Source: an uncultured Dehalococcoidia bacterium (GTDB lineage Bacteria; Chloroflexota; Dehalococcoidia; DSTF01; JACRBR01). Taken from it: DNA of 64,000 nucleotides. A program made the position numbers and the translations under genes. The notes beneath the pieces are model-generated. The model was given only the letters and a program-made list of their open reading frames with translations, was not told the DNA's origin and did no database searches. The stretch is from positions 17,651 to 81,650 of the forward strand of contig CAYJMJ010000004.1 in assembly GCA_964371095.1 (NCBI GenBank). Reading direction: 5' to 3'. Shown in pieces: positions 1 to 12,084 of this stretch. The first letter of the stretch is position 1; each line of letters begins with the position of its first letter.

Positions 1-84
1 GCCGGCGCGTGGCAGGTCACGACCTACAACTACCCGCAGCATCAGGACGCGATCGAGACGCTGCCGCTCCTCACCGCGGCGTAG
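1..84 (+). CDS. 3' end of an unidentified CDS truncated by the window start
   Basis: Open frame from base 1 to the TAG at 82-84, reading ...AGAWQVTTYNYPQHQDAIETLPLLTAA. No recognisable family. Confidence 0.3.
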   Translation, partial: AGAWQVTTYNYPQHQDAIETLPLLTAA

Positions 85-93
85 CGCACCGCG

Positions 94-1395
94 TCATGGC
101 GTCAGTCGGTGCACGTCGCGCGGAAACAGCGCGACCTCGCGGACGTTCGCCACGCCCGCGATCTGCGCCACCCAGCGTTCCAACCCGATCGCGAACCCAC
201 CATGGGGCGGCATGCCGTACCGGAACGCCTCCAGGTAACCCTCGAGCGCGCTGGGATCCTGGCCCTGGGCAGTGAGCGCCGATACGTAATCCTCGTGACG
301 ATGCAGCCGCTGCCCGCCCGTCACGAGTTCGAGCCCTCTGAACAGCAGGTCGAAACTGTTCGAGAACTCCGGGCGCGTGCGGTCCGGATGCGTGTAGAAC
401 GGCCGCTTCACCATCGGGTAGCCGGTGACGAACAGAAAGTCCGATCCGTGCTGGCACCGCGCCCACTCGCCCAGCCACCGCTCGTGCGCGGGCGCGAGGT
501 CCGGTTCCCCGACCAGGTCTTCGCCGGTGGCATCGCCGATGATCTTGAGCGCGTCCGCGAAGTGCACCACCGGCACCTCGCACGGCACGGCCGGCAGCGC
601 GACATCGACGAGCGCCAGCGCATCGCCCGCTTCCGCCCGCAAGGCATCGACCATCGCCGCGAGGGCCGCGGTGAGGACCGCCATCACGTCGCAGTGGTCC
701 TCGATGAACCCCATCTCCGCGTCGAGCGAGACGTACTCGTTGAGGTGCCGCGCCGTGTCGTGCGGCTCTGCGCGGAACACCGGCCCAACCTCGAACACGC
801 GCTCGAACACGCCCACCATGATCTGCTTGTAGAACTGCGGGCTCTGAGCCAGAAACGCCGGCGTTCCCATGTAGTCGACGCCGAACACATTCGCGCCGCC
901 CTCGGTCGCCGCGCCGACGATTTTCGGCGTATGGATCTCGACGAAGCCCCGCGCGCGCAGCGCCGCGCGAAACCCGGAAAGCGACGCCGCCGCGAGCTGC
1001 CAGAGCGCGCGTCGCCGCGGGTGACGGAGCGTCAGCGCCGCGTGGTCGAGCAGCGTCGGAAGCTGGCTGTTCAACGCCGGCCGGAACAGCTCGATCGGGG
1101 GCGCCTCCGATGCGGCGGAGATCACCTCAATCTCCGGCTGGCGGACCTCGACGCCCATCGGAGCCTGCGCGTTCGCGACGGCCGCGCCTTCCACCGCGAT
1201 CGCCGACTCAGCGTGCAGCGCCTCGATCCGCTCGGCGACGGCCGGATCGTCGACGACGACCTGCGCCAGCCCGCGCGCATCGCGAAGGATCAAGAAGCTC
1301 ACGCGGCTCAGGCGCCGGACGCGATGTATCCAACCAGCGAGCCGCACACGTCGTCCGGCGTGGTTCGGCAGTTCGATGCTGTAGATCCGCTCCAC
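94..1395 (-). CDS. aspS: aspartyl-tRNA synthetase, class IIb archaeal/eukaryotic-type (probably non-discriminating)
   Basis: 433-aa ORF with an N-terminal anticodon-binding OB fold and class II motifs (FRAEPHDTARHLNEYVSLDAEMGF, GGFAIGLERWV). GTG start at 1393-1395, preceded by GGGGAGGGGAGG as a Shine-Dalgarno. Confidence 0.9.
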   Translation of the reverse strand: MERIYSIELPNHAGRRVRLAGWIHRVRRLSRVSFLILRDARGLAQVVVDDPAVAERIEALHAESAIAVEGAAVANAQAPMGVEVRQPEIEVISAASEAPPIELFRPALNSQLPTLLDHAALTLRHPRRRALWQLAAASLSGFRAALRARGFVEIHTPKIVGAATEGGANVFGVDYMGTPAFLAQSPQFYKQIMVGVFERVFEVGPVFRAEPHDTARHLNEYVSLDAEMGFIEDHCDVMAVLTAALAAMVDALRAEAGDALALVDVALPAVPCEVPVVHFADALKIIGDATGEDLVGEPDLAPAHERWLGEWARCQHGSDFLFVTGYPMVKRPFYTHPDRTRPEFSNSFDLLFRGLELVTGGQRLHRHEDYVSALTAQGQDPSALEGYLEAFRYGMPPHGGFAIGLERWVAQIAGVANVREVALFPRDVHRLTP

Positions 1396-1746
1396 GGCAA
1401 CACCTCCCCTCCCCGGCCCGCGCCAGCAGGCAGAGAGAACGCAAGACGCCCCACTCGCGCGGACGAGGGGGCGTCTCGTGGTGCCACCGCATGTTCACCG
1501 CCGATCGCTATCGATCGACAGCCTTGGAGCCGGATAACGGGGGCGAACCGTCGGGGGTCTACTGTGCGCGTGCGGTTCTTCCCCGCGCTCGGGAGGGTCT
1601 TCGCAGGGTCCGGAGGCCGCCGTCACACCGGCAGGCGGCTCTCTACGCTCCGGGATGCCCGCTACTCATCTCCGTCGGCGCTGTGCGCATATCCTACCCG
1701 GTTCGCGGGTGGCGGTGCCAACATCGAGACGCGGACCGGGCGCCGG
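1396..1746 (-). ncRNA. putative T-box riboswitch leader of aspS
   Basis: 350-nt non-coding gap 5' of aspS. Minus-strand GCGGUGGCACCACG (plus coordinates 1477-1490) matches the T-box core GGUGGNACCGCG, and its UGGC bulge fits a G73 discriminator, as in tRNA-Asp/Asn. It sits immediately 5' of the 1445-1475 hairpin, then about 45 nt to the SD and GTG. A GAUGAGUAGC stretch resembles the AG/GA boxes of Stem I. Confidence 0.45.
1445..1475 (-). terminator. intrinsic terminator-like hairpin (likely the T-box terminator arm, or the cysS operon terminator)
   Basis: Plus-strand gacgcccc (1445-1452) pairs with ggggcgtc (1468-1475) across a 15-nt loop. On the minus strand the hairpin is followed by UUGCGUUCUCUCU. 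Confidence 0.5.
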
Positions 1747-3119
<1,373 letters not shown>

Positions 3120-3123
<4 letters not shown>

Positions 3124-3893
3124 CCGCCGATCGCCTTTCTGTCCGGCGGCGCGTTCCCGCCGCCGTTCTCGCCGTCTGCCGCTTCCCGCTCCCGATGCAG
3201 GTGGACCGGCTCTCCGCCTTCGGGGCCCGGCTGCGGCGCCCGGCCCCCGAGCGCCTCGACCTGCTCCTGCAGCGCGCGGATGCGCCGCTCCATCCGCTCG
3301 ATGTGCTGTTCCAGCGCATCGATGCGGTCCCACTCCGGGTCGGGCAGCCGCGTAATCGTATCGCCGCCGGCCTCGTGGAACGAGACGACGTGGCCGGGCA
3401 CGCCCACGACCGTGGCGTTCTCCGGCACGTTCGTCACCACGACCGATCCGGCGCCGATGCGCGCGTTGTCGCCGATCTCCACCGCACCGATGAGCTTCGC
3501 GCCCGCGCCGACGGTCACGCCGCGTCCGAGCGTCGGATGGCGCTTCGTGCGGTGCAGGCTCGTGCCCCCGAGCGTCACTCCCTGCAGGATGTGGCAGCCG
3601 TCGCCGATCTCGGCCGTCTCGCCGATCACGACACCCATGCCGTGGTCGATGAACAGCCCCTCGCCGATCTGCGCGCCCGGGTGGATCTCGATACCCGTGA
3701 GGAAGCGGCTGAAGTTCGAGATGGCGCGCGGAATCACGGGCACGCCGCGCCTGTGCAGCGTGTGCGCCAGTCGATGCAACTCCCGCGCGTGAAATCCCGG
3801 GTACGCCAGGATGATCTCGAGCGTTCCGCGTGCCGCGGGATCGCGCTCGCGGATCGTGTCGATGTCGTGCTTGATAGACCTGAAAACAGACAT
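3120..3893 (-). CDS. cysE: serine O-acetyltransferase with C-terminal coiled-coil/low-complexity extension
   Basis: Left-handed beta-helix hexapeptide repeats (GIEIHPGAQIGEGLFIDHGMGVVIGETAEIGDG...) and an N-terminal SATase helical domain. ATG at 3891-3893. Confidence 0.85.
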
Positions 3894-4086
3894 GAGGACG
3901 AGGTCCTCCTCCTACCCCTTGACGCGCCGCTGCTTCAGTCTGGGGCGCCCGCTACGCGGTCCGCCCCGGCGGACAACAGCAAGGCGCTTCGCTCAAGAAG
4001 GCGGCGCCTGCAGCGAATCCGGGAAAGGAAGACTTCGCCACGCAAGACTCCTGCGCCGCACCCACGCGGCGGCCGGTCGTGATGGT

Positions 4087-4554
4087 CTACTCTAACAACA
4101 CCACCGCGAGGGCGGCAACGCCGTCGCCGCGGCCTGTAAAGCCCAGTCCGTCCGTGGTCGTGGCCTTGACGCTTACGGCGCCGATGTCAAGTTCCAACGC
4201 CTCGGCGATCGCCTCCCGCATCGCCGGCACGTGAGGAGCGAGCCGGGGCTCTTCGGCCACCACCGTCGCGTCTACGTTGGCGACGCGCCACCCGGCGCCC
4301 CGTAGGCGCTCATCGGCCAGCCGAAGCAGGTCGATGCTCCGTGCGTCCCGCCAACGGTCATCCGACGACGGGAACATGCCGCCGATGTCCCCCAGTGCCG
4401 CCGCGCCGAGCATCGCGTCGATGACGGCGTGGGTCAGCGCGTCGGCATCGGAGTGCCCGGCCAGACCGCGCGGGTGCGGGATCGCGACGCCGCCGAGCAC
4501 GAGCCGCCGCCCGGCCGCGAACGCGTGTACGTCGATTCCCTGTCCGATCCTCAT
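4087..4554 (-). CDS. ispF: 2-C-methyl-D-erythritol 2,4-cyclodiphosphate synthase
   Basis: 155 aa; MRIGQGIDVHAF...GHSDADALTHAVIDAMLGAAALGDIG...ATTTDGLGFTGRGDG is the canonical IspF fold. First gene of an ispF-cysE-cysS arrangement. Confidence 0.9.
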   Translation of the reverse strand: MRIGQGIDVHAFAAGRRLVLGGVAIPHPRGLAGHSDADALTHAVIDAMLGAAALGDIGGMFPSSDDRWRDARSIDLLRLADERLRGAGWRVANVDATVVAEEPRLAPHVPAMREAIAEALELDIGAVSVKATTTDGLGFTGRGDGVAALAVVLLE

Positions 4555-4719
4555 CGGCGCGATTGTACCGGGAATGGTGCGATGGCAGCTTCCGATCGTA
4601 GGGAGGGCCGAGCGTCCGGTATGATCCTCGCAGTCATGGAAGACTTCGAGGCCTACGGACAGCTGCGCGACCGGCCGCGCGACACGCCGCCGCCGGGCGC
4701 GCCCGCCGCGGGGCGCGCG

Positions 4720-4750
4720 CCCCCCCCCCCCCCCCCGCGCCCCCCCCCCC
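4720..4750 (+). repeat. homopolymeric tract C17-GCG-C11 (encodes poly-Pro in every frame)
   Basis: Read directly from the sequence: 4720-4736 is 17 C, then GCG, then 4740-4750 is 11 C. An ATG-initiated frame starting at 4621 terminates at TGA 4756-4758; the LCP frame continues in frame 0. Confidence 0.9.
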
Positions 4751-4805
4751 GCCGCTGATCCTCGCGCCGCCGCGCCCCAAGCGCTCGCACTGGCTTCGCA
4801 ACATC

Positions 4806-5783
4806 GTGATGCTCGCGGCCCTCTACGTCGCGTTGGCCGTCGGCACGACGGTGCAGCCGCTGCCGATACCGTTCACGTCGGTCCACGCCTCGGTGCCGTT
4901 CCCGGGCGGCGCACCGGTGTTGTTCGGACTGCCGGACCGCCCGTTCACGGTGCTCGTCATCGGCCTGGACCGCCGCCCGTCCGAAAAGGGAGCGAGCCGT
5001 ACGGACACCGTGCTGCTCGTGCGCATCGACCCGGGCGCGCACAAGGCTGCGTTCCTCAGCATCCCGCGTGACTCGCTCATGGAGGTCCCGCAGGCCGGCG
5101 GCACCTACACGCAGGACCGCATCAACACCGCCTATGTCTACAACTGGTCATCGAAGGACGGCAGTGCGGCGCCGAAGGCCGTGGCGGCCACGATCGAGCA
5201 CAACCTGGGCATCAAGGTCGACCATTACATCACGTTCGATCAGCGCAGCGCCGAGGACTTGATCCAGGCCATGGGCGGCGTCACGATCGACAACCCGCGC
5301 GAATTCGGCCAGGAGGACTACTCCGACGACGACGTCCACGTCGTGCCGCAGCACTTCGCGAAGGGCAAGATCTCACTCGACGGCTACCAGGCCGTCGCCT
5401 ACGGCCGCATACGCGAAGGCTCCACCGATTTCGATCGCATCCAGCGGCAGCAGCGAGTCGGTTCGGCGCTCATTCATCAGGCATCGTCGCCGATGTCCGT
5501 CGTTCACCTGCCTGCGGCGTTCAACGCGTACCGGAAGACCATCAAGACCGACATGAGCCTGCGCCAGTCGGCGGGCGTGCTGTCGCTGCTCAAGGGCGTC
5601 GACGACGGCGACCTCAAGACGAAGTCGCTCGGCGACGCGGCGGTGTCGTGCAACTCCTGCACGGCGTCGATCCAGCTCCTCGACCCGGCCAGGGTGCAGG
5701 CGATCATCGCCGAAGCATTCGGCGACCCGGAGGCCGGCGCCCGCGCCGCGCAGCTTCTCGCCGCCGCGGGCGTCACGCCGTAA
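4806..5783 (+). CDS. LytR-CpsA-Psr (LCP) family cell-envelope phosphotransferase; N-terminus probably encoded from 4621 in another frame
   Basis: Transmembrane helix MLAALYVALAVG followed by an LCP domain (TVLVIGLDRRPSEKGASRTDTVLLVRIDP...FLSIPRDS...DRINTAY). The frame is open back to 4602 with no ATG. The 4621 ATG frame (MILAVMEDFEAYGQLRDRPRD...PPPP) would join it after a -1/+2 shift inside the poly-C tract. Confidence 0.8.
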   Translation: MMLAALYVALAVGTTVQPLPIPFTSVHASVPFPGGAPVLFGLPDRPFTVLVIGLDRRPSEKGASRTDTVLLVRIDPGAHKAAFLSIPRDSLMEVPQAGGTYTQDRINTAYVYNWSSKDGSAAPKAVAATIEHNLGIKVDHYITFDQRSAEDLIQAMGGVTIDNPREFGQEDYSDDDVHVVPQHFAKGKISLDGYQAVAYGRIREGSTDFDRIQRQQRVGSALIHQASSPMSVVHLPAAFNAYRKTIKTDMSLRQSAGVLSLLKGVDDGDLKTKSLGDAAVSCNSCTASIQLLDPARVQAIIAEAFGDPEAGARAAQLLAAAGVTP

Positions 5784-5793
5784 GGAGGACGAA

Positions 5794-6210
5794 TTGACCG
5801 AAGAAATCACCGCCGACTTCCTGATCCTCGCCGATGCGGCGCAGGTCCAGGGCGAGAAGCTCTATTTGCTGGGCGGCGGATGGTCGCTCATCTGGGCCAA
5901 GGAGTTTCCCGCGCAGCACCAGATGGCCGTCGCCGCCGGCATCCTCATCCCGTGGATGGAGACGAATGCCCGCCACCAGTTCCGCATCCACGTCCACTCC
6001 GAGGACGGCGCGACGTTCGGCGACGTCAGCGGCGAGTTCGAGCAGGGCCGCGCGCCCGGCCTCCCGCCGGGAACCACGCAGCGCGTCATGCTCACCGTCA
6101 ACATGGGTATCCGCATCGAGCGGCCAACAGAAGCCGCCGCCGAACTGTGGCTCGACGGCGTGCTCGCGCGCTCCGTGCCCTTCCGGATCGCCGCGACGCC
6201 TCCGCGCTAA
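5794..6210 (+). CDS. conserved hypothetical protein (138 aa), co-oriented 10 nt downstream of the LCP gene
   Basis: Clean ORF with non-biased composition (MTEEITADFLILADAAQVQGEKLYLLGGGWSLIW...). No family recognised. Confidence 0.55.
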   Translation: MTEEITADFLILADAAQVQGEKLYLLGGGWSLIWAKEFPAQHQMAVAAGILIPWMETNARHQFRIHVHSEDGATFGDVSGEFEQGRAPGLPPGTTQRVMLTVNMGIRIERPTEAAAELWLDGVLARSVPFRIAATPPR

Positions 6211-6935
6211 CCGCGCGCCTTTCGTGACTGCCCGATGAATGCGTCGAACAGCCGCCGCATGAGCGGCGCGAACTCCGGTTTGTGCCCTTCGGGCCGCTCG
6301 GGGTGCCACTGGACGCTCACCACCCAGCGATGCTGCTCGCTCTCGGCGCCTTCGACCAGGTCGGACCCGTGATCGTCGGCGAACGCGATCGGCCGCAACC
6401 CGGCGGCCAACTCCGACGCCCCGACGGCCTGGTGGTGGCGCGAATTGACCTCGAATGCGGTCTCGCTGAACGCCGCCGCCAGCCGCGTGTCGCCGATGAG
6501 CCGCACGCGGTGCCACCGCGATGGGTACCCCGGCGTGCCGAAGTCAGCGCGATGCTCTCCGCTGTCGATGTGCTGGAGGAGTCCGCCACCGAATCCGACG
6601 TTCATGAGCTGGTGACCCCGGCAGATCGCCAGCACCGGGATATCGAGCCGCAGCGCTTGCTCCAGGTACGCAAGCTCCATCGCATCGCGCTCGGGCGACG
6701 TCTCCTTGACCTTCGGGTGGCGCTCGGCGGCGTAGCTCGACGGGTCGACGTCGATGCCGCCGGTCAGCATCAGCGCGTCGAGCGATGGCGCCAGGTCGGC
6801 GGCCCGGCCCACGGCCGCCTCGTTGAGGTCGATGACCTCGCCCCCGGCCTCCCGCACGCGCGACCAGTACCGGTCGAGCGCCTCGGCCGCCACGTCCTCC
6901 CAGCGCGTTACGCCGATGCGCGGCGCATCACTCAT
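6207..6935 (-). CDS. class I glutamine amidotransferase, gamma-glutamyl-GABA hydrolase-like (peptidase C26)
   Basis: Catalytic Cys in LAICRGHQLMNV and a His/Glu region (WHPE). 242 aa. Confidence 0.8.
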   Translation of the reverse strand: MSDAPRIGVTRWEDVAAEALDRYWSRVREAGGEVIDLNEAAVGRAADLAPSLDALMLTGGIDVDPSSYAAERHPKVKETSPERDAMELAYLEQALRLDIPVLAICRGHQLMNVGFGGGLLQHIDSGEHRADFGTPGYPSRWHRVRLIGDTRLAAAFSETAFEVNSRHHQAVGASELAAGLRPIAFADDHGSDLVEGAESEQHRWVVSVQWHPERPEGHKPEFAPLMRRLFDAFIGQSRKARG

Positions 6936-7088
6936 CGCGGTTCACCCCACTTGCCCCGTACCTGCGGCACCGCGGCATACGCCGGCATGCCTCACTCCGA
7001 GGTTACACGGTGCGCCCCGTGTCCGCACCGGGCGAACAAGAAGGGCAGCCTCGTGGCTGCCCGTTCGAGCTGCGGCTCGGCGAAGCGG

Positions 7089-7922
7089 TTACTCCTCGAA
7101 CTCCGGGTCGTCGGCGTCTTCGTCGCGCGCGACGTCGAACAGCGTGACCTCTCGAGGTTCGGCTTCGTGCTCGGCCTCGTGTTCCGTTTCCTCCCACTCC
7201 TCGTTCTCTTCGGCGAACTCGTCTTCCTCGTCGAGGTCGGCCCGCACGAGGCTCTCCTTGGTGTACGGCCGCACCACCTCGCCAGCCTTGCCCGCCGGGA
7301 ACGACAGCCGGCCCACCTGGCCCGGGTGCTGGAACGTCTCCTTGATGATCACCCGCACGCTGTCGCCGCTCAGGCCGGCGACCGCCGCGGCGTACTTATT
7401 GCCGCCGGCGATCAGCCTCGTCAGCCGCAGCGCCAGCTTCGGCTCGATGTCGCTGATGTAGTCGCCCGCCATCGTCTCGACCGTCAGGCGCGAGCCGATG
7501 GTCTTCAGCGCCACCTCGTCGCCGGCCGACAGCGTCGCGAGCATCTTGATGTTCGCGGGCTTGAGCACGGTCACGCCCGTCTTGCCCATCTCCTCGATGA
7601 ACAGGCTGGTGTCCACCTGCTGCGCCCTGTCCGGCTCCGCCTTGGCGCGCGCCGTCGCGAGCCGCTCGAGGTTCTTGCGGGCAATCGAATTGGTCGGCTC
7701 GAGTTCCAGCGCCTGGTGGTACGCCTCTCGAGCTTCCTTGATCTTGCCCGTCTCGCTCAACGCCTTGCCGAGCCGGTTGTAGGCCTCGGGCTCCGTGGGA
7801 AACACGGCGATGATCGCGCGGTTGGCCGTGATCGCGTCGTCCCAGCGGCTCTGCATCGCGAACTGGATCGCCTGCTCGGTCCGAACGCGCTTGATGCGCG
7901 CTTTGTCTTCGGTCTGGTTCAT
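7089..7922 (-). CDS. TPR-repeat protein with acidic C-terminal tail
   Basis: TPR-like helices (AYNRLGKALSETGKIKEAREAYHQALELEP) and a C-terminal Glu/Asp-rich tail. Start chosen at MNQTEDK (7920-7922), preceded by AGAGGA; the ORF is open up to 8006. Confidence 0.7.
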   Translation of the reverse strand: MNQTEDKARIKRVRTEQAIQFAMQSRWDDAITANRAIIAVFPTEPEAYNRLGKALSETGKIKEAREAYHQALELEPTNSIARKNLERLATARAKAEPDRAQQVDTSLFIEEMGKTGVTVLKPANIKMLATLSAGDEVALKTIGSRLTVETMAGDYISDIEPKLALRLTRLIAGGNKYAAAVAGLSGDSVRVIIKETFQHPGQVGRLSFPAGKAGEVVRPYTKESLVRADLDEEDEFAEENEEWEETEHEAEHEAEPREVTLFDVARDEDADDPEFEE

Positions 7923-8117
7923 ACGTCCTCTTGAATGCGTTCGGGGGCTCGAATGTCGGGAGATTGTAGGCTGTTGCCCGAAGCAACACAAGTCAGTTTT
8001 TCCCACGGTAGCATCGGCCGAATACCCTCATGTTCGATTGCCACATGCACGTAACATTAGGGCCGGCCCCGTGCGATGGTTCTCGCACCTGGCGCCCGCA
8101 CTCCGTATATTCTCTGC

Positions 8118-8798
8118 ATGAGCGAGACTGCACCCTCCGTCAACGAGGTCATCGTCCACGGCATCATCGTCGGCGCGTTCCAGGAGAACTGTTGGGTGAT
8201 CGGGAACCGCCGCACGGGCGAGGCCGTCTGCGTCGATCCCGGCGACGAGCCCGAGGAGATCCTCGCCATGGCCCGGGAGATGGGCGTCCAGATCAAGTAC
8301 ATCGCCAACAGCCATGCCCACATCGACCACATTCTCGGCGTGGCCGCCGTGCGCGAGGCTACCGGCGCGAAGTTCCTCCTCCATCCCGGCGACCTGGAGA
8401 TCGCCCGTGGCACGGCGAAGTCCGCCCGCGCCTTTATGGGCATCGACATCCCGAACCCGCCGGAACCCGACGCCCTCCTCGCCGACGGCGATGAGATCGA
8501 CGTCGACGGGCTGAAGCTCACGGTCCTGCACACCCCGGGGCACACGCCCGGCAGCGTCTCGTTCTACGCCAACGGCGTGCTGTTCGCCGGCGACACGCTG
8601 TTTCAGGGCTCCATCGGCCGCACGGATCTCCCCGGCGGCGACGAGCGCCAGGAGATGGCGAGCATCGTCGACCGCCTGCTGGCCCTCCCCGACGACACGA
8701 TCGTGCTGCCCGGCCACATGGGCCAGACGACGATCGGCGAGGAGCGGCAGCGCAACCCATTCGTCCGCATGGAACTCGCCCGCCGCGAGGGACGCTAA
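8118..8798 (+). CDS. MBL-fold metallo-hydrolase (glyoxalase II-like)
   Basis: HAHIDH metal-binding motif, TPGHTPGS and DTLF. Start chosen at MSETAPSV. Confidence 0.85.
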   Translation: MSETAPSVNEVIVHGIIVGAFQENCWVIGNRRTGEAVCVDPGDEPEEILAMAREMGVQIKYIANSHAHIDHILGVAAVREATGAKFLLHPGDLEIARGTAKSARAFMGIDIPNPPEPDALLADGDEIDVDGLKLTVLHTPGHTPGSVSFYANGVLFAGDTLFQGSIGRTDLPGGDERQEMASIVDRLLALPDDTIVLPGHMGQTTIGEERQRNPFVRMELARREGR

Positions 8799-8819
8799 CC
8801 GGAGCCGCGGAAGCCGGGC

Positions 8820-9023
8820 CTACTTCGCGATCATGACGTCGGTTGACTTCACGACCACCGTGACGCGGTTGCCCTTCTTCAGGGCCAGCGCGTCGGCCGA
8901 GCCGCGCGTGATCGCGGCGACCATCTCCTGCCCGCCGATGTCAACGACGACCTCGCTCATTACCGTGCCGAGCTTGACGCTCACGACCTCGCCCTTGAGC
9001 TGGTTCCTGGCGCTGAGCGGCAT
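8820..9023 (-). CDS. single-domain molybdopterin/molybdate-binding Mop (TOBE) protein
   Basis: 67 aa, MPLSARNQLKGEVVSVKLGTVMSEVVVDIGGQEMVAAITRGSADALALKKGNRVTVVVKSTDVMIAK: a typical Mop/TOBE fold. The ORF track extends it upstream; I prefer the short form. Confidence 0.7.
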   Translation of the reverse strand: MPLSARNQLKGEVVSVKLGTVMSEVVVDIGGQEMVAAITRGSADALALKKGNRVTVVVKSTDVMIAK

Positions 9024-9133
9024 CTGTTCCACCTCCTGCGTGTCGAGTTGCCGGGGACGATCGTACACCCAACCGGCATGCGCGCACCGGTCCGTCCGCC
9101 CCTCCGCCACGTGCCGTCCGGCCCCTTGCACGG

Positions 9134-9161
9134 CGGACTTCGATATAGGACGATTTGTCCG
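9134..9161. promoter_or_regulatory. candidate operator: nested inverted repeats CGGAC-N18-GTCCG and GGAC-GATTT-GTCC around a CGATATA motif
   Basis: Seen in the sequence 9 to 36 bp upstream of the regulator ATG at 9170, in the divergent region shared with the mop gene. CGATATA resembles the E. coli ModE half-site. Confidence 0.35.
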
Positions 9162-9169
9162 CAATCCGG

Positions 9170-10306
9170 ATGGAGGTGCCAACCGTGGGACGTCGCACAG
9201 AGGCCGCTGCCCTCCAGAGCAAGGTCCGCGCGGCACGGGTTGCCGGGGGCCTGTCGCAACACCATCTTGCTGAACGGGCCGGCATCACCCGCCAGGCGAT
9301 CGTGGCGATCGAGGCCGGGCATTACACGCCCAACACCGCCGTCGCGCTCCGCCTTGCCCAGGCGCTCGAATGCCGGGTCGAAGACCTGTTCGTCCTGCCG
9401 GAGCCCCGCGTCGAGCGGCCGGCGGCGATCGCAGGCGGACGCGTCGCACCGGGCGCGCGCGTCGTCGTGGCGGCCGTCGGCGACCGGCTCGTCGCGCATC
9501 AGTTGGGCGGCAGCGGCCTGTTCGCCCCGGCCGACGGCGTCGCCGTGAACGCGGCATCGAAGGTCCAGCTCTTCATCGACCCCGAGCAGGCCGAACGCAC
9601 CGCGTTTCTCGTCGGTTGCGACCCGAGTCTCGGCATCCTCGCGTCGTGGGTATCACGGCGTTCCCAGGCGGCGCGGCTCGTCTGGCTGCCTGGATCGAGC
9701 CAGGCCGCCCTCGACGCGTTGAAGCACTCCACGGCCCACGTCGCCGGCATCCATCTCCGCGACGCGAAGACCGGCGAGTTCAACGTCGCCCACGCGCGGC
9801 GCGCGCTCGCCAGCGCCGGTGGCATCGTCGTCAGCTACGCCGGATGGGAGCAGGGATTCATCGTCGCGCACGGCAACCCGAAGAAGCTCGGCTCCATCGC
9901 GGACCTCGCACGGCCAGGCGTGCGTCTCGTCAACCGCGAGGCCGGCTCGGGGAGCCGCGCTCTCCTCGATCAGTTGCTCGGCGGATCCCGCATCCCGGCC
10001 GAGCGGGTGCTCGGGTACGACGACGTCGTCAGGAGCCACATGGCCGTCGCGCGCGCCGTGGCCAGCGGCGCCGCCGATGTCGGTATCGGGCTTCGCGCAG
10101 TCGCCAGGGCCTCCTGCGGATTCGTGCCGCTGGCCGACGCCCGGTTCGATTTCCTGATCCCGAGCGAGCACCTCAAGCATCCGGCGATCCAGGTATTGCT
10201 CGACGTCATGCAGTCCGCGTCGCTCCGCGCCGACCTGTCCGCCCTGCCGGGATATGACGTGAGCGCCACGGGAACGGAACAGGCGCGATTCGGCGCCGTC
10301 GCCTGA
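9170..10306 (+). CDS. transcriptional regulator, XRE-type HTH fused to a PBP-like (ModA-like) substrate-binding domain; putative molybdate/tungstate-responsive
   Basis: N-terminal HTH (LSQHHLAERAGITRQAIVAIEAGHYTPN) and a C-terminal periplasmic-binding-protein-like 2 fold. Next to mop and modABC. The alternative TTG at 9155 was used by the ORF track. Confidence 0.8.
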   Translation: MEVPTVGRRTEAAALQSKVRAARVAGGLSQHHLAERAGITRQAIVAIEAGHYTPNTAVALRLAQALECRVEDLFVLPEPRVERPAAIAGGRVAPGARVVVAAVGDRLVAHQLGGSGLFAPADGVAVNAASKVQLFIDPEQAERTAFLVGCDPSLGILASWVSRRSQAARLVWLPGSSQAALDALKHSTAHVAGIHLRDAKTGEFNVAHARRALASAGGIVVSYAGWEQGFIVAHGNPKKLGSIADLARPGVRLVNREAGSGSRALLDQLLGGSRIPAERVLGYDDVVRSHMAVARAVASGAADVGIGLRAVARASCGFVPLADARFDFLIPSEHLKHPAIQVLLDVMQSASLRADLSALPGYDVSATGTEQARFGAVA

Positions 10307-10345
10307 TAGAGTCCGGCGCAAGCCGCACGAGAACGGAGAGAGCCC

Positions 10346-11212
10346 ATGGTTCGTCCACTCCGCCGCCGCGCACGCCGGTGGCTCGTCGTTGCCATCGCCG
10401 TGATCGGCGCGATGGTGGCTGCGTGCGGAAGCGGCTCGAGTTCGGACGAGAAGCGCGGGGCGTCGCCCGCGGCCGGCGCGTCCGAGACCGGCGGGCTGTC
10501 CGGCTCGATCACCGTGTCCGCCGCCTCCTCCCTGACGGACGTGTTCTACCGCGAAGCGGCGGCGTTCCAGAAGGCGCATCCCGATACGCGAGTGAACTTC
10601 AACTTCGGCGGCAGTCCGACGCTCGTGACCCAGCTCGACCAGGGCGCCCCGGCCGACGTGCTCGCCACCGCGGACGAGAAGAACATGAAGTCCGCGTCCG
10701 ACAAGTCGCTCGTGGGCGCCGTCAACGTCTTCGCCAGGAACCGGCTCGTCATCGCCGTCCCGACGTCGAATCCCGGCGGGATCCAGGCGCCGAAGGACCT
10801 CGCCAAGCCCGGTCTCAAGCTCGTGCTCGCGGAGGAAGGCGTGCCCGTCGGCGATTACGCGCGCCAGGCGCTCTCGAAGATGGAGTCCGACGGCTCGTTC
10901 GGGGCCGGGTTCACCGGCGCCGTGCTGAAGAACGTCGTCTCCGAAGAGTCGAACGTCAAGGCGGTCGTCGCCAAAGTGCAGCGCGGCGAGGCCGATGCCG
11001 GCATCGTCTACAAGACCGATATCACGCCCGCCGTCGCGAAGGACGTGACCACAATCGACATTGCCGACGGGTTCAACGTCATCGCCTCCTACCCGATCGC
11101 CATCACGTCGATGGCCGGGTCCCCGGGCGTCGCCGCGGCGTTCATCGAGTTCATCATGTCCGCCGAGGGCCAGAAGATTCTCACCGATAACGGGTTCAGC
11201 GGGGTGAAATGA
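10346..11212 (+). CDS. modA: molybdate ABC transporter substrate-binding lipoprotein
   Basis: Lipobox (VAACGSG) and a ModA-family fold with the SAASSL anion-binding motif. Stop overlaps the next start as ATGA. Confidence 0.9.
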   Translation: MVRPLRRRARRWLVVAIAVIGAMVAACGSGSSSDEKRGASPAAGASETGGLSGSITVSAASSLTDVFYREAAAFQKAHPDTRVNFNFGGSPTLVTQLDQGAPADVLATADEKNMKSASDKSLVGAVNVFARNRLVIAVPTSNPGGIQAPKDLAKPGLKLVLAEEGVPVGDYARQALSKMESDGSFGAGFTGAVLKNVVSEESNVKAVVAKVQRGEADAGIVYKTDITPAVAKDVTTIDIADGFNVIASYPIAITSMAGSPGVAAAFIEFIMSAEGQKILTDNGFSGVK

Positions 11213-12084
11213 GCGGCGCCGTCCACGCATCGCACCGCACCGCCGGCGGCGTCCGGGCGGGCCTCGGTTGGCTCTTCAGCCCGCCGGCATTGCTCTTCGC
11301 GGCGTTTCTCGCGGTGCCCCTCGCGGCGTGCGGCGGCTCGCCCACGCCCGACGCGACCGCGATCCCGGGTCAGCGGCCATCGGGTAACATCACCGTCCTC
11401 GCCGCTGCCGACCTGCGCCTCGCGTTCGACAAGATCGGGGCCGCGTTCGAGAAGACCTGCGACTGCCGCTTGACGGTGACCTACGGCTCGTCCGGGACGT
11501 TCGCGACGCAAATCAAGCAGGGCTCACCTGGCGACGTCTTTGCGTCCGCGGACGTGTCATATGTCGATGGGTTGGAACAGGACGGGCTCATCCTTCCTGA
11601 CACAAAGCGGGACTACGCTATCGGACGCATCGTCCTGGCAGCGAGCGCCGGCTCACGATTGACCATCGACGGGTTGGCTGACCTCGCCGGCCCCCAGTTC
11701 AAGAAAGTCTCCATTGCAAACCCTGATCACGCTCCATACGGCCGTGCGGCGAAGGAAGCCCTGACCGCACTGGGTCTGTGGGACAAGATCGAGCCGAAGC
11801 TCGTGCTCGGCGAGAACGCCGCGCAGGCCACCCAGTACGTCGAGACAGGCGACGCCGACGGTGGCATCATCCCGCTTTCGCTTTCCATTCAGAACAAGGA
11901 CAAGATCCGGTACGTACTGATCGACGACAGACTCCACAGTCCCCTGAGGCAGGCGGCCGCCGTCCTCAAGCAGAGCAAGCACGCCGACGTGGCAAGAGCG
12001 TTCCTTGACTACCTCAACGGGCCGGAGGGGCGGCCCATCATGCGCGAGTACGGGTTCGTTCTTCCCGGGGAACAGGCGCCATGA
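11209..12084 (+). CDS. second ModA-family substrate-binding lipoprotein (divergent paralogue, possibly tungstate/other oxyanion)
   Basis: Lipobox (LAACGGS) and a ModA-like fold, but the anion-binding motif reads LAAADL instead of SAASSL. ATGA overlaps on both sides. Confidence 0.85.
   Translation: MSGAVHASHRTAGGVRAGLGWLFSPPALLFAAFLAVPLAACGGSPTPDATAIPGQRPSGNITVLAAADLRLAFDKIGAAFEKTCDCRLTVTYGSSGTFATQIKQGSPGDVFASADVSYVDGLEQDGLILPDTKRDYAIGRIVLAASAGSRLTIDGLADLAGPQFKKVSIANPDHAPYGRAAKEALTALGLWDKIEPKLVLGENAAQATQYVETGDADGGIIPLSLSIQNKDKIRYVLIDDRLHSPLRQAAAVLKQSKHADVARAFLDYLNGPEGRPIMREYGFVLPGEQAP

Follow-up and report, generated by a model that had tools for sequence, protein, structure and literature searches.

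The question raised by this locus is whether a long, interrupted poly-C tract at the start of a LytR-CpsA-Psr (LCP) gene is a switch that turns the gene on and off, as the original prediction proposed, or a product of sequencing and assembly, which it named as the alternative. The window, as we call the whole 64-kb stretch of DNA that was analysed, carries a C17 run at 4720-4736, a GCG at 4737-4739 and a C11 run at 4740-4750; a tract of this form, placed by the prediction between a 45-aa ATG-initiated frame and the LCP frame, was thereby confirmed at 4720-4750 and found to be unique in the window. At a GC content of 69%, the window has no homopolymer longer than 7 other than these two, the runner-up being a single C7 at 21557, and apart from these three runs none exceeds 6; by our own estimate, composition would give about 0.002 occurrences of a C17 run. 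The tract lies far beyond the local run-length distribution, in agreement with the earlier description of runs of at least 17 as extreme for this genome.

The 45-aa frame occupies 4621-4758, begins with MILAVMEDFEAY and ends with PPPRR before its stop codon (full translation MILAVMEDFEAYGQLRDRPRDTPPPGAPAAGRAPPPPPPRPPPRR). In the LCP frame, a stop at about 4599 is followed by an open stretch as far as 5783, in which GTG 4806 is the first ATG, GTG or TTG codon and ATG 4809 comes next; upstream the frame is therefore open without an ATG, as had been stated. The corresponding 325-aa ORF matches PF03816 (LytR_cpsA_psr) over residues 65-227 (121.2 bits against a cut-off of 24.6, E=5e-35), which bears out the assignment of the gene body to the LCP family. 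The two frames are joined by a change of +1 or -2 nt, the reverse of the -1/+2 change that had been proposed, whereas removal of one C leads into a third, closed frame; the +1 fusion is 387 aa long, against the about 387 aa anticipated. Under the reading that we favour below, and with L001 and L015 denoting two contigs from parallel assemblies, the locus is made up of the following features:

4087..4554, - strand: ispF (YgbB), the divergent upstream neighbour (PF02542, E=5e-64)
4621..4701, + strand: putative genuine 5' end of the LCP gene, encoding the cytoplasmic N-terminal tail MILAVMEDFEAYGQLRDRPRDTPPPGA; the same as in the intact L001 gene
4702..4748, + strand: putative spurious insert of 47 nt, placed with MAFFT against L001 and ambiguous by a few bases
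4720..4750, + strand: C17-GCG-C11, the probable degraded 5' tip of the downstream contig, from the comparison with L015
4749..5783, + strand: putative genuine remainder of the LCP gene, with linker, transmembrane helix and LytR_cpsA_psr domain (PF03816); stop codon at 5781-5783
4778..4780, + strand: AAG (Lys)/AGG (Arg) polymorphism between two co-occurring strains, from the parallel contigs
5794..6210, + strand: DUF6941 gene, directly downstream (PF22091, E=1e-20), syntenic in all parallel contigs

In the remainder of the LCP gene the Pro/Arg linker is PPLILAPPRPKRSHW and the predicted transmembrane helix is LRNIVMLAALYVALAVGTTV, the hydrophobic stretch LRNIVMLAALYVALAVG having been assigned as transmembrane by inspection. 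The DUF6941 gene has a TTG start in the ORF listing, 10 nt past the LCP stop, and may be co-transcribed with the LCP gene.

The LCP gene, its homologues and a near-identical contig

A search of a large protein collection with the 387-aa fusion recovered hundreds of LCP proteins from Chloroflexota/Dehalococcoidia MAGs, with lengths of 362-418 aa and a query coverage of 99-100% that includes the N-terminal tail. In more than 100 of these homologues a MEDFEAYGQLRDRP-type tail is joined to the transmembrane helix and the LCP domain in one protein, the common layout being (V)MEDFEAYGQLRDRP, a short and variable Pro/Ala/Arg linker, R-R/K-RSHWLRN and the transmembrane helix; the strict form of the (V)MEDFEAYGQLRDRP motif, which corresponds to window positions 4636-4680, is present in 70 of the 120 best homologues (P0001-P0120). 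Because the homologues carry this tail fused to the LCP domain, sequence comparison identifies the 45-aa ORF as the true 5' end of the LCP gene. The proposal that the two frames are halves of one gene thus holds, given that homologues span both, and the predicted order of tail, Pro linker, transmembrane helix and LCP domain is also the one seen in the homologues. A start at GTG 4806 or ATG 4809 would deprive the protein of a part of its membrane anchor and of the positive charges beside it. A non-canonical CTG or ATC start for the LCP frame as it stands was considered and dropped, since the homologues include the upstream tail.

The start codon of the gene is ambiguous between ATG 4621 and the more widely conserved ATG 4636 (MEDFEAY...). 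A GGGAGGG sequence at 4601-4607 precedes ATG 4621 with a spacing of 13 nt, whereas stop codons closely precede V/MEDFEAY in many orthologues, which makes ATG 4636 the equivalent of the conserved start.

The best match, P0001 (371 aa), differs from the fused protein by a Lys/Arg change and a gap of 16 residues in the linker; identity is 96% overall, with all differences but one falling inside the insert, and outside it no further lesions are present. This protein is encoded intact on L001 (ENA ERZ13693050, NODE_3636, a SPAdes-style name), a contig that is 99.8% identical to window positions 1-11563 and that at the LCP locus differs solely by the absence of 47 nt. Between the anchors that flank the site, this clean allele has 6 nt (CGCGCC) and the window has 53 nt, and the longest run at the clean site is 3-4. 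Since 47 is not a multiple of 3, the insert produces an apparent frameshift. Joining 4621-4701 to 4749-5783 gives 1116 nt, that is 371 codons plus the stop, the length of P0001, and without the 47 nt the protein is colinear over 371 aa with P0001, as well as with homologues that cover 99-100% of the query, carrying the N-terminal anchor and the catalytic domain in one polypeptide. The true locus is therefore most likely, as far as can be judged from sequence, a single intact and ordinary LCP gene of 371 codons, whose predicted product starts with a cytoplasmic tail of the MEDFEAYGQLRDRP type and continues through a short Pro/Arg linker and a single transmembrane helix into the extracytoplasmic LytR-CpsA-Psr domain.

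More distant relatives were also inspected for the tract. No Pro run ahead of the membrane anchor exceeds 5 residues in the 120 best homologues, the usual maximum being 2. The 18 loci taken from GTDB species representatives, some of them on contigs as long as 1.05 and 3.6 Mb, have no homopolymer above 6 in the 5' part of the LCP gene, which is fused and intact wherever the motif was found. In the comparison with orthologues that had been suggested, the tract was thus absent from the 18 related loci and the 120 homologues. The closest locus in the scan of GTDB species representatives, L026, has 84% protein identity, and that set holds neither a representative of the window's own species nor a copy of the locus from long reads; a scan of JGI metagenomes for the junction, with 6-66 nt allowed between the anchors, gave 0 matches.

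Filler and scaffold gaps in parallel assemblies

Parallel loci were retrieved through look-ups of the exact ispF protein, present on 22 contigs of one ENA study, and of the truncated 324-aa LCP product that starts at ATG 4809 (P0121), on record on 9-10 contigs, none of those listed being the window itself. Exact look-ups of the 325-aa product with the GTG start and of the 45-aa ORF gave no record. The resulting set comprises 15 stretches (L001-L015) from 13 assemblies, all belonging to one ENA study; two contigs are represented twice, L005 and L013 being the same contig. The insert is missing from both L001 and L004, which are 99.8% identical to the window over 11.5 kb, and the 13 stretches besides these amount to 12 distinct contigs from 12 other assemblies. 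In these 13 stretches the anchors GACACGCCGCCGCCGGG and GCCGCTGATCCTCGCGCC are identical, and between them lie 45-215 nt of low-complexity sequence, different in each, as against the 6 nt of the clean allele. This filler is made up of poly-C interspersed with poly-G, poly-A and poly-T stretches and is interrupted in 10 of the stretches (9 contigs) by an N10 scaffold gap.

The position of the filler is constant across assemblies and its content is not. In the 12 other contigs and in the window its left edge lies within a few bases downstream of ...CCGCCGGG and its right edge within a few bases upstream of GCCGCTGATC, and in every filler-bearing assembly a poly-C run stands right before GCCGCTGATC, in forms that vary among assemblies (C25, C29, C13-G-C13, C16, C12 and C9). 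The inserts free of gaps are 47, 39, 44 and 40 nt long and display no preference of frame. Filler arms do not exceed 105 nt on either side, as would be expected for tips that derive from single reads with an anchor in good sequence.

The window's own insert has counterparts on both sides. L015 (ERZ13692936 NODE_602) reads NNNNNNNNNN, which includes an N10, and then exactly C17-GCG-C11-GCCGCTGATC, and from the first C of the tract onwards it is equal to window 4720-7283 with 1 mismatch in 2564 positions; the part of the window insert that lies ahead of C17 and runs into it (CGCGCCCGCCGCGGGGCGCGCGCC...) is similar to the left-hand filler of L006. Because of this L015 tip and the L006-like left filler, the window insert looks like two false contig tips merged into one. 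L005 and L012, which come from related samples, have their distal filler in common and differ in the proximal degradation, a pattern more in keeping with a deterministic error driven by the sequence than with real sequence.

Two strains that co-occur across samples of the same ENA study are separated by the AAG/AGG site, which lies 28 nt past the tract. AAG is found in the window, L002, L006, L008 and L015, and AGG in L001, L003, L005, L007 and L009-L014. Filler is present at the site in both the Lys and the Arg strain; the clean allele was found for the Arg strain only, with none on record for the window's Lys strain.

As a result of this variation, gene callers reported LCP 'proteins' of 371, 383, 384, 411, 419, 424 and 439 aa at the locus, and also split calls of 324+99, 324+44 or 324 aa alone. 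The 'proteins' of 383-439 aa in other sister assemblies have no Pfam match on record. On the ispF strand (minus), calls are over-extended to 236-269 aa as against 155 (L012 617-1366, L014 786-1496 and L015 687-1496), two of these three being without a YgbB Pfam match on record, and products of the artefact, such as P0122 and P0126, are present in public protein sets. A further protein of 371 aa, P0127 from a contig of 80,987 nt, has ...GAPPLARAPP... against ...GAPPLILAPP... at exactly the tract site; the residue change by itself would be consistent with a misreading of the codons CTGATCCTC towards G/C, and miscalls would then occur at the site even in assemblies of the correct length.

A probable systematic failure site in short reads

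The origin of the filler is clearest to the left of the scaffold gaps, where it repeats the true downstream gene colinearly and without gaps, but with many errors. In L008 the left filler matches it at 61 of 76 bases (z=14 against random window segments), and the same comparison gave 70 of 102 bases in L003 and L011 (z=11). A left filler that copies the downstream gene indicates that the molecules that were read had no insert. Within the window the insert from 4702 to about 4725 likewise repeats, in degraded form, the bases that truly come next, CCGCCGCTGATCCTCGCGCC, with 15 of 24 matching, and its remainder is poly-C filler to which most of C17-GCG-C11 belongs. The miscalls themselves are not random, given that 37 of 47 in L008 and L003 equal the first or second preceding true base, against 28.2±3.1 under a null drawn from the filler's own composition (P=0.002). 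The right-hand poly-C filler was not significantly similar to the true upstream sequence (P=0.06-1, the lowest being 0.057), and the distal ends of the right-hand filler in L005 and L012 look similar to it by eye only.

The linker DNA in which the calls break down (…ACGCCGCCGCCGGGCGCGCCGCCGCTGATC…) is 93% GC over 40 nt, at the 99.9th percentile of the window's 40-nt stretches. On the minus strand the site is a run of GGC triplets (GATCAGCGGCGGCGCGCCCGGCGGCGGCG) with 5 GGC in 25 nt, one GGC lies just before the forward breakdown, and the GGC/GCC density is at the 98th percentile of the window. Window sites that are equally or more GGC-dense did not fail, and the failing site, at the 98th-99.9th percentile, is not the most GC-rich. 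A DNA hairpin was rejected as the trigger, its minimum free energy of -31.6 kcal/mol being no better than that of shuffled sequences (z=0.72).

This pattern recalls the sequence-specific errors of Illumina reads, which set in at constant positions behind a GGC motif or an inverted repeat, show a lagging phase in which the miscall is the first preceding base in 49-64% of cases, have an A/T-to-G/C bias in high-GC genomes and leave assemblies with gaps and false branches (Nakamura et al. 2011, Nucleic Acids Res 39:e90, PMC3141275). The site studied here shares with them consecutive miscalls from one fixed position in many datasets, miscalls that copy a preceding true base (37 of 47), the A/T-to-G/C bias in a high-GC genome, and assembly gaps and false branches. 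GGC motifs are present on both strands as well, but equally GGC-rich window sites were unaffected. The site differs in the severity of the degradation, which ends in near-homopolymer calls. Severe degradation of this kind has a possible second source. Poly-G calls arise from signal loss on two-colour instruments, and such signal loss may also be involved in the near-homopolymer calls at this locus.

Altogether, the insert-free near-identical contig, the assembly-specific filler, the scaffold gaps, the colinear left filler and the lagging miscalls lead us to conclude that C17-GCG-C11 and about 16 bases preceding it, 47 nt in total, are very probably not the organism's DNA but an artefact of sequencing and assembly at a systematic short-read failure site. 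The original prediction had the right class of explanation in its sequencing-error alternative, which it conceived as a homopolymer error; a simple miscount does not describe the locus, since the whole insert of 47 nt appears to be spurious. We postulate that short reads coming from either side would lose phase at the GC-rich linker and then yield reproducibly wrong, C/G-enriched calls, and that the assembler would have lengthened both contig ends with such degraded reads, by about one read length at most. The two false tips would in most samples have been joined only by scaffolding, with N10 between them, whereas in the window's assembly they would have overlapped in poly-C and been merged into the out-of-frame insert of 47 nt that splits the gene call. 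The exact trigger is, like the platform, an inferred part of this explanation. On the artefact reading, base quality is predicted to break down right after ...CCGGGCGCG in forward reads and right after GATCAGC in reverse reads.

Alternative readings and consequences

Among the alternatives, the one that survives best is a real poly-C/poly-Pro insertion that was miscounted by one base, the true run being C18 or C12, so that the gene would encode an in-frame LCP protein of 387 aa with a Pro-rich insert of 16 residues. One added base does restore the full-length frame, the 16 additional residues would keep the protein within the 362-418 aa of the homologues, a real long C tract would give the poly-C run right before GCCGCTGATC in all filler-bearing assemblies, and long homopolymers are themselves difficult for short-read chemistry. 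We nevertheless regard a miscount as improbable, since the forward filler of L008, which belongs to the Lys strain, and of L003 and L011 enters the degraded downstream gene without any inserted bases, since C17-GCG-C11 adjoins a scaffold gap in L015, and since the lengths and interruptions of the tract differ arbitrarily among assemblies and Pro runs in the homologues do not exceed 5.

A related possibility, confined to the Lys strain, is that its LCP linker truly contains a long, hypermutable poly-C (poly-Pro) tract that short reads cannot traverse and that was garbled in every assembly. We hold this to be distinctly improbable; if true, it would be a homopolymer contingency locus controlling the attachment of cell-wall glycopolymers in an uncultured soil lineage of the Chloroflexota, a phylum in which, to our knowledge, homopolymer contingency switches have not been described.

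The phase-variation switch of the original prediction would be a slipped-strand contingency locus in which a hypermutable poly-C tract turns the LCP enzyme on and off, the differences among assemblies reflecting heterogeneity of the population. Contingency loci with poly-C or poly-G tracts are well known from surface genes of Neisseria, Haemophilus and Campylobacter, and the deposited sequence resembles them in its long homopolymer at a frame junction in the 5' coding region of an envelope gene. A cell-envelope enzyme is, from general knowledge, a plausible class of target, and the length does appear to vary at one site of near-identical contigs, with some variants in frame (383 and 384 aa) and others not. 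Unlike the length ladder of a known contingency locus, however, these variants are unrelated fillers in which poly-A, poly-G and poly-T stretches and N10 gaps occur, the left filler repeats the real gene in misread form, the clean sequence, with its longest run of 3-4, offers no tract on which slippage could start, and the tract is kept in 0 of 18 related species and 0 of 120 homologues. The switch is therefore highly improbable, given that neither a 99.8%-identical contig nor any orthologue examined has the tract and that the variants are not variants of tract length. Programmed ribosomal frameshifting on the poly-C was dropped as well, the tract being absent from the near-identical contig.

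It is extremely unlikely that a real insertion of 47 nt, possibly from replication slippage or duplication in the GC-rich linker, inactivated the gene and left a true pseudogene, because the resemblance of its first 24 nt or so to the following sequence (15 of 24), which recalls a degenerate tandem duplication, is explained by misread copies and extends over 76-102 nt in the assemblies with scaffold gaps, because the right part of the insert is a contig tip that adjoins N10 in L015, and because a single Lys/Arg change from P0001 is the only other coding difference and the gene has no further lesions. Miscount, switch and pseudogene all need the insert to be present in the DNA. Evidence against such an insert comes from the clean near-identical contig, the scaffold gaps and the copies that are misread yet colinear.

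With the artefact as the preferred reading, the deposited contig carries a false poly-C insert of 47 nt, so that a single gene is called as a 45-aa orphan plus a truncated LCP protein of 324/325 aa, and the sister assemblies have contributed chimeric 'proteins' of 383-439 aa and over-extended ispF calls that are now in public collections. Scans of high-GC MAGs for contingency loci, pseudogenes or poly-Pro proteins would collect false positives from sites of this kind, and comparison of parallel assemblies of the same population can expose such artefacts without access to the reads.

For the biology of the organism the finding carries little weight, the gene being most likely an ordinary intact LCP gene. 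LCP enzymes transfer undecaprenyl-phosphate-linked glycopolymers onto peptidoglycan through an extracytoplasmic catalytic domain that is anchored by one N-terminal helix, and the protein described here, by virtue of its PF03816 membership, is likewise expected to attach glycopolymers to peptidoglycan. It shares with known LCP phosphotransferases the PF03816 domain, a short cytoplasmic tail, the single N-terminal transmembrane anchor and the extracytoplasmic catalytic domain, and differs from them in the lineage-specific conserved cytoplasmic motif MEDFEAYGQLRDRP, for which a profile search returned no Pfam match. This conserved tail is the sole mildly unusual feature of the real gene.
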